A stretch of 64,000 bases of DNA. It comes from Octopus vulgaris. Taxonomy: Eukaryota. The stretch spans positions 113,894,001 to 113,958,000 of the forward strand of contig OX597821.1 of NCBI GenBank assembly GCA_951406725.2, in the 5' to 3' direction. The notes beneath the pieces were generated by a model. That model searched no databases. It was not told the DNA's origin and was given only the letters and a program-made list of their open reading frames with translations. This document shows, one piece after another, positions 782 through 62,547 of the stretch. Made by a program: the position numbers and the translations under genes. Numbering within the stretch: the stretch's first letter is position 1; every line of letters begins with the position of its first letter.

Positions 782-1600
782 TGTTTCTTTATTAGCCACA
801 CAGGGCTGCACACAGACGGGACAAATTACAAAGTAGAGCATTTCTTTTTGGGGAGAAAAAAAAAGTGGGGTAGGTTTTCGATCAAAAGGGATCGTAAAAG
901 GGAAAGAAAAAAAAGGGAAAGAAAAAAAGAAAAAGAAAAAAAACAATCAATATGGATCGTGTATCACAGAAATGTCATGATGTAACGTGTAAAGGGGGAG
1001 GCAGATAGGGTTTATCCGTGGAAAGAAAAGCCTACGCAAAAGACCACGGTAACCTCGGTCAATAATGTTACATGTTACCACATTTGTTTGCAAGTAGGTA
1101 ACCCTCTGTTTTTCAAGTAGGTAACCCTCTTTTTTTCCGGGTTCGTAGGATTATGCTCAAAGTGGCTTCCTCATTCATAGTGCCATCCTTGCTACATTCA
1201 CCCATCTTTTTATGAAACATTCGCTAGAGAAAACTTGTCTCTCTACTCTCACTTTCCTTTTCAAGTGATACTTGAAGAAGTTGATGAGAGATTGACCAGA
1301 GAGGAAAGTGTTTGTCTCCAATCCTTTCAGACGCGTTCATCAGATACATTCTTTCGCCATAGCCACAAGAATGATGAAAATAGCTCTTCCTTCCCATTTG
1401 AAGGAAGGAGGCGTGAAAATATTGACGACAGACTCGGCTGATAAACCGATTCGTCCCACAAGTGACAGCAGTCTTTCGACATAAGCCCACAGGTTGGAAA
1501 TTGTTGGACACTGCACGAGTGCGTGCAGAACGATTTCGTCGCTCTGACCGCATCTCGAGCAGGTCGGCCTCGTGTTTCTCGAGTCGTGTCTGTAGAGCTT
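781..1600 (-). mobile_element. 5'-truncated, degenerate L1/Tx1-clade LINE (ORF2 C-terminus plus 3' UTR)
   Basis: Minus frame reads KLYRHDSRNTRPTCSRCGQSDEIVLHALVQCPTISNLW, a CxxC-x7-H-x4-C zf-RVT-like motif, with internal stops further on. Ends in AATAAAGAAAC and is flanked on both sides by (AGAT)n. Confidence 0.75.
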
Positions 1601-1646
1601 AGATAGATAGAGAGAGAGAGAGACAGAGAGACAGAGAGACAGAGAC

Positions 1647-1726
<80 letters not shown>

Positions 1727-2316
1727 GGGTTGTTAGATTAATGAGTTTAATAACTATAAATCAATACGGATTTCTGAGTTTAAGATATTAATACGCATTA
1801 ATGTAAATAATGAATTCAATACATTAATATAGATTAGCATAGAGTAATGAATTTAGTATATTAATGTCTACAATATATTAGTATAGATTAATATACACTT
1901 ATGAGTTCAATGTGTTAATGAATTTTGTATAGATTATTGATTTAATTATCCTGGATGTATGAGGTAATAATTCACTGAAATCGATTTATAGTATTTGTTG
2001 AATTAGAGATTTCTTCTAAAGGACTTTGATGCAAACAAAATTGAGAGGCGGGTTTCAGTCAGTGTAGAAATTTGAGAAACAGAGAGAGAGAGAGAGAAAG
2101 AGAAAAAGAGAAGGATATGGAGAATTAGAGAGGGAGAGAGAAGTAGGGAGGGTGGTAAAGGGAGAAAAAGAGAGGAAGCAAAATTAAGTGAAAATGAATA
2201 TAAAACTCTCAAGGGTTTTTCCATGAGAATGTGAAAGAGTCGTCCCAATACACACATTTATGTCTCAATTTGGCGACCAATTAACAACACAGTTTTAATT
2301 ATTTAAATGGACTTAC

Positions 2317-2490
2317 AGCAACAGTTCTGTCTCCTGGTTCTTGGGTCCCTAGAACAATTTCACCCGTCGAATCTATTTTACCACGCTGGTCTCCAACCGT
2401 TAATGATTCCACAAGTTTACAATCTATATACATTTCCACGTTTTCTGTCCCGACAGAAAAGTGAAGTTTATGCCATGATTTCGTGAAAAG
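2317..2490 (-). CDS. Collagen IX/FACIT-like gene, TSPN exon 3 (LFTKSWHKLHFSV...MYIDC...GEIVLG...RTVA)
   Basis: Acceptor cttttgcAG, donor GCT|GTAAGT. 174 bp, phase 0/0. WHKL...YIDC laminin-G/TSPN motif continues directly from the 19232 exon across a ~16.7 kb intron. Confidence 0.93.
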
Positions 2491-3699
2491 CTGCAAAAGA
2501 AGAGCAAACAAACTGTTCAATTCTCTGGTATCGAAATTAATTCAAAGAACAAGTCGAAATTTTACACCGTTTGAAGATATCTGTACCACCATAAACACGA
2601 AAATATTCTTATTTGAAATATTTCGTGATACAGTATAATACCCAACTAACCAAAATAGAATAATGGACTCTTCAGTCCTAAAAGTTAGTTGAGGGTTCTG
2701 CAAATTATTCTTAAACCGCCTGCACAGATGATTTGTTTAACCTGATCAAATGTTTGCGCGGCACATCAGCTCGTTCCCTCAGTCGAAACGACAATGCAGG
2801 TGCACTATGTGCCGCACGTCAGGTGTCGAAGTGATCGCGGAGTGACGTGAAAACTGAAGTGGTTTCGCCAAGAACACAACGCAACATCAAAAACACGATC
2901 CGGGCCTCAAAATAAGGATTTTGCAAGCGTGAACGCAACATCCAAACTGCTAGGCCAGAAGTCGAATAAATATGTGCGAAAACATAATTTATTAAAATAT
3001 CTAAAATGCATGTCACCAATATTCTCAAGATATTTTCGAAAACAAAAAAAAACAAACAAACAAATTTCGAAACTTCTTGATAACTCAATTACCGTCCTAA
3101 ATCTACGTTGCTTTTCCTTAACACATACGGAATGTAGAGCTATGAATCCGATATGAATGAAAAAGAAAACAACAACATCAACAACAACAACAAGAACAAC
3201 AACATGCAAGTACCCTTAACAGCTTTATTCTGGTATATCCTCAGATTTATTTAGCAGTGATAAAATCATTTCCTGTTATCTACATATTTGCTGAGTTTGA
3301 AAAAAAATTGAGTCAGAGCGGCATTTCTAAATGTCAAGGTTATGCACTTCATTCTGCTGGTTTATCTTCATTGCCATCTAATTCTGCATCAGCAAACAAC
3401 GTTTACATTGGCTTTTATGCATTATGTCTCGTTTTTCCTTCAGTATAAGTAAACCGTTTAATGTAAATGGGGTTTATTACGGCTGTGAGAAACCAGGAAT
3501 AGATAAAGGATAATCACAACAGCGGAGAAAAAAATGGCTTATACGTGTACGAATATTTGCGGAGGATACACTGAATAAGTTAGCTGAAATGACTGTGACA
3601 AATAAAATTGTATTTAATAGCTTTGCAATCTGCGTTACTATTTAGCAGCTATAACTCTGAGAGCGGGAACATATATTAAAGGATACAAACTATACAGCC

Positions 3700-9607: not shown

Positions 9608-9702
9608 GGTGTTCTATGTATCTATTAAAAAAAATTAATTATTTTATTTTTATTTACATCATTTACAATGGACGGATATTTGCCCTCATCTTGTTTGTTG
9701 TT

Positions 9703-9748
9703 AACACAACGTTTCGGCTGATATACCCTCCAGCCTTCATCAGGTGTT
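9703..9748 (-). ncRNA. Minimal type I hammerhead ribozyme in PLE pLTR
   Basis: AACAC-CUGAUGA-A-GGCUG(GAGGGUAUAU)CAGCC-GAAAC-GUU-GUGUU. Stem I 5 bp, stem II 5 bp, loop-less palindromic stem III (ACGU). Confidence 0.8.
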
Positions 9749-11647
9749 TTTTGGGGGAAATTTCAAGCCTATGGTATTATTATTATTATTAATATCATTC
9801 AGGTCACTGCCTGGAATCGAACTCGAAATCTTTGGGTTAGTAGGTCGCACTCTTAACCACTATACTCTATGCTCTTGGGCCAATTTGGAGTGAATTTTAG
9901 GACTTATAAATCCAATATCCTCCTATCCTTCCTTAATACCGGTTCCCATATGCTGTTCATATCTGCTCCCGGTCTGCTTAGGAGGTTGTTGTGTCCTAGC
10001 GTATGTGCTGCTTCTTTTAGTTTTCGTATTTTCCAGTGGTGTTCTCTGTCTATTATTTTAACTTCACCCCACAGGGGATGGTGGTTTCCATTTTTCCATA
10101 CAGGATCAGCCATACCCGATTTATCAATATCTCTTCGTGTCACAGCTTTGCGATATTCTTCTACCCTTATTTTAAGGGGACTGCATGTTTCACCTTTGTA
10201 TAACCTACCACAACTGCATGGGATGGAGTACACGCAGTCTTTGGTCATATTCTCTTCTATTGGTGGTTTTACTCGAAGGAGATATTTGCGAAGTGTTGTA
10301 TTACTCTTGAATAGTGTCCTGATGTCATATGGGCTGCATATCTTTTGTATCTTTTCAGAGAGGCCTTTCACATAGGGTAGACAGACTGTGGACAGTTTAT
10401 CGGTTTCATCCTCTCTTCTCTCCCTAATTGGATGGAGAGTATGCTTTTGAGGTAGTTGTTGCTTAATAGATTGTTACTGAGCTTGATCATTTCTTCGTGG
10501 TGGGTATCACGATCGCTACTTATATTCATTGCTCTATGTTTTAGGCACTGAGCAATCCCTCTCTTTACACTGTATGGATGGCGGGAGTTGAAGTTGAGGT
10601 ATCGTCCAGTAAAGGTCAGCTTGCGATATAAGGATGTCCTGAATCCATACTTGGTACGCATTATTAATACGTCTAGGAATACTAGCTGATTGTCTTTTTC
10701 TTTTTCCAAGGTGAACTGTATGGATGGCGTTATTAAGTTCACATGATCTAACAGCACTTGGACATCTTCCTTGTAGGGCCAGAGTATGAAGGTGTTATCA
10801 ACATATCGCAGACATAGGGTTGGTTCTAGTGATGCAGATCCTAAAGCCAAATTCTCAAAGTATTCCATATATATTGGCTCTTATCGGTGATAATGGCGAA
10901 CTCATAGCTAATCCCTCTTGTCCATATATATCAGTGTCCATACTGAAGTTGGTAGTTTCTACACAGGTCAACATTTCCACCAAGTTTCTTATTGGTATAC
11001 TAGTGCTACTTTTAGATGGGTATCTGTCACTAGTTTTTCTTGAATCACCGATAGTGCTTCACCAGTTGGGACTTTGGTGAACAGACTTATCACATCTAGA
11101 CTCACCATCTGGTTGGATTCAGTGGGAGAATTCATAATCAATTCTGTGAAGTGGATGGAATTCTTCACGTACGATGTTGACTTTCCTGCTAATGGACTGA
11201 TTATATCCACAAGGAATCGGCTCAGTGGGTGACATGCTGAATCTCTACAGTTCACTATAGGTCTTAATAGAATACCAACCTTGTGAATCTTAGGAAGACC
11301 GTATATGTGTGGTAGTTTACGGTAGTGTTGAGTCAGTTGTCTGTACTTCATTGGTGTAAAGTGATCCTTCTTCTTGATCAAGCTCTGTGACAACTTCCTC
11401 TCTGTTTTCGAAGTAGGGTCTTTCTTTACTTTGCTGTAGCTACCATCACTTATAAGACTTGCCAGTTTTTCCGAATCAACACTGTAGCATTTCCCTTGTC
11501 TGCTGGAAGTATTATGATGTAATTATCACTCTGTAGTCTTTTGCTAGCGAACGTTTCATCGTTAGTGATGTTTGGTGAACCGGTATTAAGGAAGGATAGG
11601 AGAATATTAGATTTATAAGCCCTGAAATTCACTCCATAATTGCCCAC

Positions 11648-11720
11648 GGGCTTATGGCGTAGTGGTTAAGAGCGCGGGCTAGTAACCCCAAGATTCCGAG
11701 TTCGATTCCATGCAGTGACC
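11648..11720 (+). promoter_or_regulatory. tRNA-like Pol III internal promoter within the PLE pLTR
   Basis: A box TGGCGTAGTGG (11655-11665) and B box GTTCGATTCC (11700-11709). Homologous copies at ~9803-9880 (-), ~50985-51060 (+) and a partial one at ~50675-50708 (-). Confidence 0.7.
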
Positions 11721-11779
11721 TGAATAATAATAATAATAACAACAACATCGAAAAATACCTTAGGAAATTTCCCTCCAAA

Positions 11780-11825
11780 AACACCTGAAGAAGGCTGGAG
11801 GGTATATTAATCGAAACGTTGTGCT
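11780..11825 (+). ncRNA. Degenerate hammerhead copy in the inverted pLTR
   Basis: AACAC-CUGAAGA-AGGCUGGAGGGUAUAUUAAUC-GAAAC-GUU-GUGCU. Core intact, stem II mutated. Confidence 0.65.
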
Positions 11826-12285
11826 ACATAATTCCTCATCTCTTAAATATAGAACCTTTTATTTTTACTTTTAAATGTTTATTGGTAACTCTGTAGATTT
11901 GGTATTTTATTATCTGCCTTAGCCAGTAAAGAATTTAAATGTTTTCTTTAGAGCAGTGATAGCAAATCTATGATATACATGTCAACAGTGAAACGCTACG
12001 GGAGTTTCGGTAACATGCAATAGAAAAAGAAATCTCCCTGCGATAGCATACTGATAAAATCGTGTCTATAGCAGTTACCCAAAACTAATAGACTTGTATA
12101 CATGTGATTTTTAATAGGCTTTTCTTGTCAGAGACCCCGCTGCACAGGAAGGAGCAACGTGAGGTCATTTGTCTACATTGTTACTCAACTAATAATTAAT
12201 AGCAACCAAATCTCTTTCAGCTTCAAGACTCAGCCTTAGAAATGGAATGAAACAATGGGCAGTGCAATAATAAATACGCATAAGT

Positions 12286-12645
12286 GGTGGCGCAATGGCC
12301 CAGTGGTTAGGGCAGTGGACTCGCGCTCATAGGATCACGGTTTCGATTCCGAGACCGGGCGTTGTGAGTGTTTATTGAGCTAAAACACCTAAATCTCCAC
12401 GAGGCTCCGGCAGGGGCTGCTGGTGAACTTTGCTGTATTTTTTCACCACAAATTTCTCTCACTCTTTCTTTTTGTTTCTGTTGTACCTGTATTTCAAAGG
12501 GTCAGCCTTGTCATACTCTGCGTCACGCTGAATCTCCGCGAGAATAACGTTAAGGGTACACATGTCTGTGGGGTGCTCAGCCACTTGCACGTTAATTTCA
12601 AGAGCTGGCTGTTCGGTTGATCGGATTGACTGTAACCCTCGTGCC
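12286..12645 (+). mobile_element. tRNA(Arg)-like SINE
   Basis: Colinear with 42282-42657. Confidence 0.8.
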
Positions 12646-17460: not shown

Positions 17461-18096
17461 TATATAGTAAAGTAAATAAGAGGGCTAGCAGCAGGCTGCT
17501 TCGCCTCATACCGAAGGAATTAGAAATGGCAGTCAAAGACTGTTTTTTCCATTTTCTGTAAGTGGAGATTCCAAAAACGAAGGCCCGTGCGGCTCACATA
17601 CACAAAACCGGAGTAGCAAATAGACGCAAACAGTCACTTACCGTTAATAACGAACATGTTTCTGGATCACAAACTCAGAAAAGTAGTTTGATTTCCTTCA
17701 TCGGCGCTATATTCGATAGATTTACCAAATGCCACAGGCCCTCACTTCTGACCCAGCGACATCAGATAGTGGGGGGAAGTGTGCAGATGTTAAAACTAAG
17801 TAACGACTGGGAACGTAAATTTTCCCTCCAAAATTCTGCCATGCGCGCCTTCTGGGTAATCGTAATGGAATGAGGAATCCACATGGTAATGCAATAAAAA
17901 TGTTCGTTATTAACGGTAAGTGACTGTTTGCGTCTATTTGCTACTTCGGTTTTGTGTATGTGAGCCGCACGGGCCTTCGTTTTTGGAATCTCCACTTACA
18001 GAAAATGGAAAAAACAGTCTTTGACTGCCATTTCTAATTCCTTCGGTATGAGGCGAAGCAGCCTGCTGCTAGCCCTCTTATTTACTTTACTATATA
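17461..18096. repeat. Long inverted repeat, 197-bp arms (17461-17657, 17900-18096), 242-bp spacer
   Basis: Arms are near-identical: mirror ORFs [12 protein letters not shown].. and [10 protein letters not shown].. appear on both strands. One mismatch noticed. Confidence 0.92.
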
Positions 18097-42281: not shown

Positions 42282-42657
42282 GGATGCGCAATGGCCCAGT
42301 GGTTAGGGCAGCAGACTCGCGGTCATAGGATCGCAGTTTCGATTCCCAAACCGGGCGTTGAGTGTTTATTGAGCGAAAACACCTAAAAGCTCCACGAGGC
42401 TCCGGCAAGGGATGGTGGTGATCCCTGCTGTACTCTTTCACTACAACTTTCTCTCACTCTTACTTCCTGTTTCTGTTGTACCTGTATTTCAAGGGGCCGG
42501 CCTTGTCACTCTCTGTGTCACGCTGAATATCCCCTAGGTTAAGGGTACACGTGTCTGTGGAGTGCTCAGCCACTTACACGTTAATTTCACGAGCAGGCTG
42601 TTCCGTTGATTCGGATCAACCGGAACCCTCGTCGTCGTAACCGACGGAGTGCTTCCA
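42282..42657 (+). mobile_element. tRNA(Arg)-like SINE
   Basis: TGGCCCAGTGG A box, CTCGCG anticodon-like loop, GTTTCGATTCC B box. Body shared with 12286-12645 (+) and 57240-57612 (-). Confidence 0.8.
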
Positions 42658-49796: not shown

Positions 49797-50454
49797 CATA
49801 TATATATACATATATACGACGGGCCTCCTTCAGTTTCCGTCTACCAAATCCACTCACAAGGCTTTGGTCAGCCCGAGGCTATAGTAGAAGACGCTTGCCC
49901 AAGGTGCCATGCAGTGGGAATGAACCCGGAACCATGTGGTTGGTAAGCAAGCTACTTACCACATAGCCATTCATATGTGTGTGTGTGTGCGCGCGCGCAC
50001 AAACGTCAATGATGCAGTTGGAATAATGCTGAAGTGAGAAGGGAAAAAACAAACGGAAAATTCTTGACGAGAACAATATTAAAGAACTAGTGTAAAAAAG
50101 AAGCAAGAAAATTTTAAAAAAAAGCAAGGACTTAGGATGGTAGATGTAGGGAAATTTAATCTACGTAACATGGTAGTTCACCTAATGTACATGTCACGTG
50201 ACAAGGCTCGAAGTTATATTTGAGAAGCAGACGATAGAAATTAGAGAATCTACTAGATGAATGTGAAAATAAGTAAGCTGTAGTAAATAATAGACGAGCA
50301 ACCAGGATTTGATTCGTGGATGAACGAAGCTATTTGAATGTAATTCGATACCTTCACTGAGAAGTGAAGATAATTCAACATCACAAAATATTTTAAAGAC
50401 ATATTTGTAGCACAAATCATAATTTTCCAAGGAAAAAGAACCCAATAAACAATT

Positions 50455-50618
50455 GTTTACATTATTTAGATTTGACAGATATTTGTCCTCATTTTGTTGT
50501 TAATACAACGTTTAGGGTGATATACCATCCAGCCTTCATCAGGTGTCTTGAGGAAATTTCGAAACTGGGTTCTCATTCCTAAGGTATTTTTCTATGTTGT
50601 TGTCGTCGTCGTCGTCGT

Positions 50619-50661
<43 letters not shown>

Positions 50662-51130
50662 ATCATTATTATTCAGGTCACTGCTTGGAATCGAACTCGG
50701 ATTCTTAGCGTGGACGAACATCGCAAAGCTGTGACACGAGGAGATATTGATAAATTGGGTATAGCTGATCATGTATGGAAAAATGGAGACCACCTCCTTC
50801 TGTGGGGTGAAGTTAAAATAACAGACAGAGAACACCACTTGAAAATACGAAAGCTAAAAGAAGCAGCACATATGCTCCTTAGCAGACCGAGTGCAGATAT
50901 GAGTAACATATAGGAACCGGTATTAATGAAGGATAGGAAAATATTAGATTTATAAGCCCTAAAATTCACTCCATAATTGTCCACGGGCATATAGCATAAA
51001 GGAAAATACTGACAGGACTTTGAAACCCCAAGATTCCGAGTTCGATTCTAGGCAGTGACCTGAATAATAATAATAATAACAACAGCAACAACAGCAACTG
51101 TAATAACAACAATATGGAAAAATATCTTAG
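50455..51130 (+). mobile_element. Second, heavily truncated copy of the same PLE family with inverted pLTR
   Basis: 50704-50953 encodes EHRKAVTRGDIDK...WGEVKI.DREHH.KIRKLKEAAH, closely matching the 9904-10371 ORF end. 50455-50708 is an inverted pLTR with a mutated hammerhead at 50502-50547. Confidence 0.85.
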
Positions 51131-51526: not shown

Positions 51527-51831
51527 GGTGGCACATGGCCTAGTGGTTAGAGCAGCGGACTCGCAGTCGAGGGATCGCGGGTTCGAATCTCAGACCGGGC
51601 GATGTGTGTGTTTATGAGTGAAACACCTAAGCTCCACGCGGCTCCGGCAGAAGGTAATGGCGAACCTCTGCTAACTCTTTCGCCACAACTTTCTCCCACT
51701 CTTTCCTCCTGCATCTTGCAGCTCACCACGCGACAGACCGGCGTCCCGTCCAGGTGGGGAACCTATACGCCATGAAACCGGGAAACCGGCTCTTATGAGC
51801 CAGGCATGGCTCGAGAAGGAACAAACAAAAC
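51527..51831 (+). mobile_element. tRNA(Arg)-like SINE with (AAAC)n tail and TSD
   Basis: A box TGGCCTAGTGG, B box GGTTCGAATCT, 11-bp TSD AATATCGGATT (51514-51524, 51832-51842). Related copy at 59691-59935. Confidence 0.85.
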
Positions 51832-59600: not shown

Positions 59601-59936
59601 TAGTTTTTGATGCATTAATATTTTATAAGAGAAATAATATACTGTATATATATATATATTGTGTGTGTGTGTGTGTGTGTGTATGTGTGGAGGCGCGTGG
59701 CTTGGTGGTTAGGGTGTTAGCATCAAGATCGTAAGATTGTGGTTTCGATTCCTGGATCTGGCGACGCATTGTGTTCTTGAGCAAAACACTTCATTTCACG
59801 TTGCTCCAGTCCACTCAGCTGGCAAAAATGAGTAAAGCTGCGATGGACTGGTGTCCCGTCCAGCTAGGGAACACATACGCCATTGAAACCGGGAAACCGG
59901 GCCCATGAGCCTGGCTAGGCTTTAAAAGGGCGCCTT

Positions 59937-62333: not shown

Positions 62334-62429
62334 CTCCCTTTTCTGCTTAATTTATATTTTATATGTATTCTTTCCAGTTTCAGCACAGAGCTGCGGCCAT
62401 GCTGGGGCACCGTCGTTAAAGTGTGAGAC

Positions 62430-62545
62430 GCTTAGAGCACCTAGGCTTCCTAAGCGGTCACCCATCTAAGTACTCACTAGGCTCACCGTTGCTTAACTTC
62501 GGTGAACGGACGAGAACCGGTGCTTTCAACATGATATGGCCGTGT

Positions 62546-62547
<2 letters not shown>
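62430..62547 (-). rRNA. Full-length 5S rRNA-like sequence (variant or pseudogene; head of a probable SINE)
   Basis: Minus strand reads ACGGCCATATCATGTTGAAAGCACCGGTTCTCGTCCGTTCACCGAAGTTAAGCAACGGTGAGCCTAGTGAGTACTTAGATGGGTGACCGCTTAGGAAGCCTAGGTGCTCTAAGC, colinear with metazoan 5S. No T4+ terminator follows. Confidence 0.88.

Follow-up and report, generated by a model that had tools for sequence, protein, structure and literature searches.

The 64,000-nt stretch of Octopus vulgaris DNA analysed here (the window) contains a broken, 5'-truncated copy of a Penelope-like element (PLE) whose pseudo-LTR carries a tRNA-like head, an (AAT)n spacer and a minimal hammerhead motif, and the sequence evidence points to this head as the promoter of the whole protein-coding element. 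The best reading, to which I give a probability of roughly 0.55, is that this autonomous PLE was transcribed whole by RNA polymerase III (hereafter Pol III). Since most short copies begin at the tRNA head and the whole element is without T4 runs, the terminators of Pol III, it was likely read end to end by this polymerase, whose usual products are short non-coding RNAs only.

The element (9653-11856, minus strand) encodes a reverse transcriptase (RT) and a GIY-YIG endonuclease, and its features are listed in Table 1. Read along the minus strand, the stop codon (9904-9906) is followed by the tRNA-like head, the (AAT)n spacer and a hammerhead (9747-9704) with a CUGAUGA core, a 5-bp stem II, GAAA and a palindromic ACGU, for which the predicted cut lies between 9708 and 9707, after GAAACGUU. 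A preliminary description of the window had reported A and B boxes, an (AAT/AAC)n run and a hammerhead with an ACGU palindrome directly after the GIY-YIG stop codon, and this order is confirmed at 9904-9704. The recurrence of the cassette that it reported at both ends of the element, and in part at 50455-51130, is likewise seen, though several of the boxes and hammerheads are damaged. The second insertion (50453-51120) is an inverted pair carrying partial cassettes; within the window, the hammerhead is intact only at 9704-9747, and both boxes are intact only in the head at 11648-11722.

Table 1. Features of the element and of the second insertion, in window coordinates.
Feature	Position	Strand	Remarks
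Possible target-site duplication (TSD), left copy	9642..9652		11 nt, low complexity; identical 11-mer at 9642 and 11857; T-rich, hence weak
3' pseudo-LTR	9653..9903	-	80-84% match to 39 other scored genomic places
Hammerhead, minimal type I, core intact	9704..9747	-	Layout as in PMC4209133; cleavage predicted
(AAT)n spacer	9776..9799	-	Next segment, with the consensus start codon, missing from the window copy
tRNA-Arg-like head	9800..9874	-	B box 9824-9813 intact; A box 9867-9857 mutated
ORF remnant, 5'-truncated, broken by stops and frameshifts	9904..11576	-	RT at about 10368-11522, plus C-terminal GIY-YIG region
Inverted 5' pseudo-LTR arm	11577..11856	+	Begins in the last ORF codons; 83% match to 9945-9702
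tRNA-like head, A box 11655-11665 and B box 11698-11709 intact	11648..11722	+	96% to the family head
Hammerhead copy, stem II broken, likely inactive	11781..11824	+	Within the inverted arm
Possible TSD, right copy	11857..11867		Second occurrence of the 11-mer from 9642
Second insertion, inverted arm	50453..50711	-	B box, (AAT/AAC)n, hammerhead at about 50503-50546 without GAAA
Second insertion, direct arm	50707..51120	+	End of the ORF, head whose A box is degraded, (AAT)n; stops short of the hammerhead

Rfam and ARAGORN recognised neither the tRNA-like head nor the hammerhead, and Pfam gave no match for three fragments of the window. Relatives of the ORF at 58-70% identity carry PF00078 and PF26215, the GIY-YIG region was assigned by eye from its motif, and a PDB search returned distant RTs only. 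A long decayed inverted head copy, considered for the stretch between stop codon and head, was rejected with its distal part not significant (P = 0.07), and a 38-nt intron in the tail was ruled out because the frame is open without it and no support was found among the joints listed. Elsewhere, the window holds other tRNA-derived SINE copies (12283-12479, 51530-51760, 42291-42346 and 59698-59755), of which the one at 51530 has a head 70% like that of the PLE, as well as a 5S rRNA-like sequence (62429-62547, minus strand; 87 bits in Rfam), a LINE-like frame fragment with a zinc-finger-like end, judged by eye (1224-1737, minus strand), and a 201-nt inverted repeat (17461-17661 and 17896-18096) that is 99% complementary with its arms 234 nt apart.

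The cassette is abundant well above chance. Genome-wide, there are 1,369 exact matches to a 38-nt hammerhead core, 2,770 matches to a 33-nt degenerate head motif and 57 repeat-to-ORF junctions by exact pattern, with reversed controls giving 0 in each case. A first look at the 2.8-Gb genome gave at least 4,168 candidates for the repeat, at least 408 for an RT piece and at least 330 for the ORF start. At least half of the sampled family words are contained in 20 of the 24 public sequencing runs listed, spanning six organism labels. Further afield, a metagenome scan yielded two distant loci, prokaryote genomes one weak match and viral contigs none. The cassette belongs to the family consensus, as had been proposed, and is no chance SINE insertion: copies number in the thousands, and it is carried by 30 of 30 loci in a sample chosen with the cassette in the query. 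Of 30 loci picked by the head, 27 continue into the PLE repeat, and of 70 picked by the hammerhead, 36 reach the head. A free SINE with the element's head was ruled out on the former count, the remaining three heads ending in or just after (AAT)n.

A family consensus, built from about 50 copies per position, defines a 2.65-kb unit with one RT-GIY-YIG frame of 835 codons; the short tRNA-headed copies measure about 270 nt. The ATG lies 69 nt before the predicted hammerhead cut, and the hammerhead is within the ORF, inside the first 23 codons, the frame continuing through the ribozyme. The 66 fragments compared with this consensus are 87-97% identical to it, and the family therefore looks old and inactive. 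As in EN+ PLEs, there is a single ORF with an RT and with GIY-YIG at its C terminus, direct and inverted pseudo-LTRs with the optional 30-40 nt tail and, judging from sequence and fold, a minimal hammerhead motif in the pseudo-LTR. The element is a PLE by every feature tested, and its provisional assignment to Penelope/Poseidon rests on the layout it has in common with PAc, an element of the green anole.

Solo repeats (56) and ORF-linked repeats (28) share one consensus, CpG decay apart, with a lowest uncorrected P of 0.011 and no variants diagnostic of either class. The short units therefore look like 5' fragments of the element's RNA, and not like a separate SINE or retrozyme lineage. Tandem pLTRs, which the preliminary description had proposed to count, formed no arrays in 30 mapped loci; each holds single pieces, inverted ones or, at most, a few direct ones that lie scattered. 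Another short hammerhead repeat family, with some inverted pairs beside (TA)n, was encountered at four loci (L366, L371, L372 and L374, near 1500-1535); it has no ORF nearby and hence was of no use as a control. A young PLE family (L165-L198, for instance L193 at 944-3287) was also found, with many intact 781-codon frames and a second frame upstream; its repeat consists of CCAAT/CRE units before a TATA box, and a pattern search found no canonical hammerhead in it.

I mapped where copies begin and end at 70 loci chosen by the hammerhead core alone: 30 were the first ones listed, and 40 belong to the following 41 on contig C1. With both arms of a locus considered, the outermost 5' point falls between -20 and +6 of tRNA position 1 in 28 loci, and beyond -20 in 8; of the rest, 11 have it inside the head, 14 have it in (AAT)n and 9 have it later. 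Thus 28 of the 36 copies that reach the head end there (binomial P = 2e-19 against a background of 12%). Values near -13 to -18 correspond to fold-back arms whose sequence imitates that upstream. Many copies form back-to-back pairs, with their centre at a 4-bp palindrome immediately ahead of the head, as expected if a cDNA reaching the RNA end at about -5 folds back, and many 5' ends join unrelated flank without inversion. Nine copies (L077, L082, L085, L086, L089, L130, L147, L155 and L309) begin in (AAT)n and share upstream flanks that come from at least three other repeats, into whose (AAT)n tails they seem to have inserted.

Loci picked by the head have the ORF end upstream in only 4 of 30 cases, and lack it in 26. 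Among all 57 junction copies, 11 reach the head, with 8 stopping there and 3 passing it; the latter indicate that templates longer than one unit existed. One copy (L316) starts at -1 and runs about 350 nt past the junction, and another (L341) starts at -7 and runs about 190 nt, so that RNAs with their start at the head and extending into the ORF likely were templates. No copy starting at the head and spanning the whole ORF was found. The 3' ends fall in two clusters, 50-59 and 81-95 nt after the predicted hammerhead cut. None of the 70 loci has its 3' end at this cut, and 5' ends within 5 nt of it number 5 of 57 against about 3 expected, by hand count, which is no clear excess.

The head itself has the features of a Pol III promoter derived from a tRNA. 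Its A and B boxes are perfect in the family, while the cloverleaf is absent, and the box pair scores above chance (P = 0.002 against 500 shuffles, with weights from 12 host tRNA types). The best host tRNA for it is Arg(TCG), with a score of 44 against 30.5-41.5 for the others, in a comparison of 25 distinct host tRNA sequences that left many isotypes outside the sample. The element thus shares with tRNA-derived SINEs a head with A and B boxes, and the absence of diagnostic variants speaks against the independent, non-autonomous lineage that such SINEs form. A Pol II promoter, often with an intron, is a usual but non-defining feature of PLE pseudo-LTRs; here the repeat has no TATA, CCAAT or CRE motif, and no GT-AG joint is among those listed. 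By comparison, the repeat of the young 781-codon family has six CCAAT motifs, four CREs and a TATA box, and none of 30 control loci of that family has an A/B box pair downstream. Three raw RNA runs from a related organism, of unstranded cDNA, show both mates equally on both strands. Their depth follows copy number, from about 1,000 at the hammerhead to fewer than 12 at the ORF start, similar to the contig depth of a fourth run, with a step at the head and with loose ends of inverted arms, as of copies lying within host transcripts. The runs reveal no start site, and weigh neither for nor against initiation by Pol III.

The lack of T4 runs was evaluated against several null models. The 1,916 nt of the window copy's sense strand hold none (P = 0.011 by base shuffle, 0.08 by dinucleotide shuffle), and neither do the 2,839 nt of the consensus sense strand or the circular unit (P = 0.005 by base shuffle). 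Within the ORF, 0 runs compare with 2.9 expected from a synonymous-codon shuffle (P = 0.026) and 5.6 from a base-frequency codon model (P = 0.002); the composition-aware test (P = 0.026) is modest. Across 12.0 kb, eleven frames from other PLE families of comparable T content contain 40 T4 runs (3.3 per kb), a rate at which 8.3 would be expected in the element's ORF, though these families are distant (about 29% identity) and some of the frames are decayed copies, which limits this comparison. The controls, from the Octopus vulgaris genome, were chosen among 20 screened loci; one copy stands for the 781-codon family, and the choice excluded two metagenome loci as well as frames whose translation was simple-repeat or non-RT. 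G4 runs are likewise absent from the element, less significantly (P = 0.12-0.30).

A divergent hammerhead (L218) led to an older sister family, of about a dozen decayed copies with related ORF remnants (L363, L377-L388, L218/L361 and L362). Its repeat aligns with that of the element over the junction and A-box region (P = 0.0035), the start-codon context is identical, and the palindrome is kept by means of a compensating change; the related hammerhead also has a compensating change, in stem II. A B-box-like motif is present at a wider spacing, and a unique spacer replaces (AAT)n. The combined A and B score is not significant on the sister consensus (P = 0.15), with one copy at 0.03. Together these features suggest that the tRNA-like head predates the family. 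The arrangement may plausibly have arisen through insertion into a tRNA-derived repeat's (AAT)n tail, given that the (AAT)n tails of other repeats hold several copies, but the different spacer of the sister family makes this less settled.

If the element was indeed transcribed whole, Pol III would start about 5 nt before tRNA position 1 and, meeting no terminator, would read through the hammerhead and the ORF into the next repeat, and the resulting RNA would be both message and template. With its promoter internal to the RNA, copies would retain the promoter. By analogy to PAc, the element's protein would begin reverse transcription at two internal sites of the RNA, some 120-128 and 151-165 nt downstream of the ATG, and the two 3'-end clusters, which match internal initiation in PAc (PMC11167929), support this mechanism. 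A start in the 3' repeat would produce 5'-truncated ORF copies such as that of the window, while a start in the 5' repeat would run to the 5' end of the RNA and yield the far commoner 270-nt tRNA-headed copies, often as back-to-back pairs by fold-back at the 4-bp palindrome at that end. Hammerhead cleavage would remove the start codon, and might speculatively act as a switch or as a route to circles, the ends of copies being set otherwise. The least secure steps here are the translation of an RNA without a cap and the processivity of Pol III, which has been argued to limit such elements to about 1.3 kb (PMC10886601). I consider it an even chance that the family represents an autonomous protein-coding lineage living on Pol III, with a tRNA-derived pseudo-LTR promoter, a 2.5-kb frame purged of terminators, translation from uncapped RNA and SINE-like copies shed from the same transcript, in which the LINE-like and the SINE-like forms would be one element.

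A less probable explanation, though one to be taken seriously, is that Pol III made short RNAs only, from the head to a genomic T run, and that these were copied in trans, in the manner of a SINE dependent on the PLE, with the full-length RNA and the protein coming from Pol II, through host read-through or an unseen promoter. A capped RNA would be easier to translate, the length limit argued for Pol III (PMC10886601) fits this division of labour, and so does the excess of short units, which outnumber ORF starts by about 200-300 to 1 (contig depth, related organism), as does the lack of an ORF at 26 of 30 heads. However, solo-specific variants are absent, head-starting copies run into the ORF, the repeat has no Pol II motifs, and the ORF's freedom from T4 runs stays unexplained. 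The 5'-end peak has a further, live rival explanation in RNA structure, since only one 32-nt hairpin of the unit is more stable than the one that holds the head (-11.6 kcal/mol), and read-through RNA may contribute to the peak through stalling or fold-back there. A separate rival takes the head for passive cargo, from an old tRNA-derived SINE that was captured on insertion of the element into the SINE's (AAT)n tail, with 5' ends piling up by RT stalling or fold-back at the hairpin in a Pol II read-through RNA. The copies found in (AAT)n tails of other repeats agree with such a capture, and rotifer PLEs without tRNA heads do have palindromes at the 5' ends of their pLTRs (PMC3846280). Yet a more stable hairpin in the ORF (-16.8 kcal/mol) stops none of the copies there, against 36 of 44 stopped at the head (Fisher P = 2e-4), albeit with only 6 copies for this control. 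Passive cargo would also not account for boxes kept intact after the cloverleaf was lost, for the many 5' ends joined to unrelated flank without inversion, for the missing T4 runs or for the similar head of the sister family, and I regard it as improbable.

More improbable still is that the repeat is an SM-alpha or retrozyme-like unit, excised by paired hammerheads, circularised and spreading by itself. A Pol III head combined with a type I hammerhead is indeed found in SM-alpha (PMC6765202), and retrozymes have been proposed to derive from PLE repeats (bioRxiv 10.64898/2026.07.22.740005), but the 30 mapped loci hold no arrays, copy ends do not match the predicted cut, no separate lineage is apparent, and the hammerhead is of the minimal PLE type. 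This bears on the central proposal of the preliminary description, a stand-alone Pol III-transcribed self-cleaving unit. Of this proposal, the evidence strongly indicates that the RNA had a defined 5' end at the tRNA head; it does not support a stand-alone self-cleaving unit of the SM-alpha or retrozyme kind, given the single consensus of the 56 solo and 28 ORF-linked repeats, the 0 of 70 3' ends at the cut, the lack of a 5' excess there and the position of the hammerhead within the ORF.

If whole-element transcription by Pol III is true, this 2.65-kb coding element would be a counter-example to the Pol II rule for autonomous retrotransposons and an instance from nature of a Pol III RNA being translated, and would offer a direct path by which a PLE could give rise to short repeats with a tRNA head and a hammerhead, such as SM-alpha. 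R2, for its part, uses Pol I co-transcripts. Pol II for autonomous elements and Pol III for short non-coding SINEs has been stated as the expectation (PMC10886601). Depletion of T4 in retroelement ORFs downstream of tRNA-like heads would provide a cheap and general test.

Among the closest known systems is PAc (Penelope/Poseidon; PMC11167929), which likewise has a single RT and GIY-YIG ORF starting in the repeat; its hammerhead cut also falls after the start codon, two internal 3' ends delimit a tail of 30-40 nt, the targets are rich in AT, and the repeats are direct and inverted. PAc transposes in vitro without hammerhead cleavage (PMC11167929). Unlike for the element described here, the available text on PAc makes no mention of a tRNA head or Pol III promoter, and the known PLE promoters are of Pol II type (PMC8557442, PMC3846280). 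A search of the full-text literature found no PLE whose promoter is of tRNA or Pol III type; Repbase and Dfam entries, subscription journals and bioRxiv supplements were outside its scope and may describe the family. The ribozyme itself is no different from the minimal hammerheads of metazoan pLTRs (PMC4209133), with the same core, an extra base after it, a long stem II, palindromic positions replacing stem III and a 4-bp stem I; it is the upstream neighbour that is new.

Metazoan non-LTR retrozymes (PMC7229834; bioRxiv 10.64898/2026.07.22.740005) are likewise short, hammerhead-bearing derivatives of PLE repeats, but are defined by tandem units each with a hammerhead, which the 30 mapped loci do not show; the available text of the preprint mentions neither tRNA nor Pol III. 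The TRIMp3 elements Cassandra, Helenus and Ajax (PMC10886601) also have a Pol III promoter derived from a small RNA in their terminal repeat, with the boxes kept and the RNA structure lost, possibly by SINE capture. They are, however, non-autonomous LTR elements of 0.3-1.3 kb, with a primer-binding site and a polypurine tract, and their autonomous partners are stated to need Pol II (PMC10886601), whereas the element described here has pseudo-LTRs and encodes its own PLE RT. SM-alpha of schistosomes (PMC6765202, PMC8490949) similarly combines a Pol III-type promoter with a type I hammerhead, but is non-coding, tandem and released by cleavage, whereas here it is the head and the internal RT starts that set the ends, and the short unit is the 5' part of a coding element. 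The element therefore resembles both TRIMp3 and SM-alpha in its use of a tRNA-type promoter, while being a member of neither.
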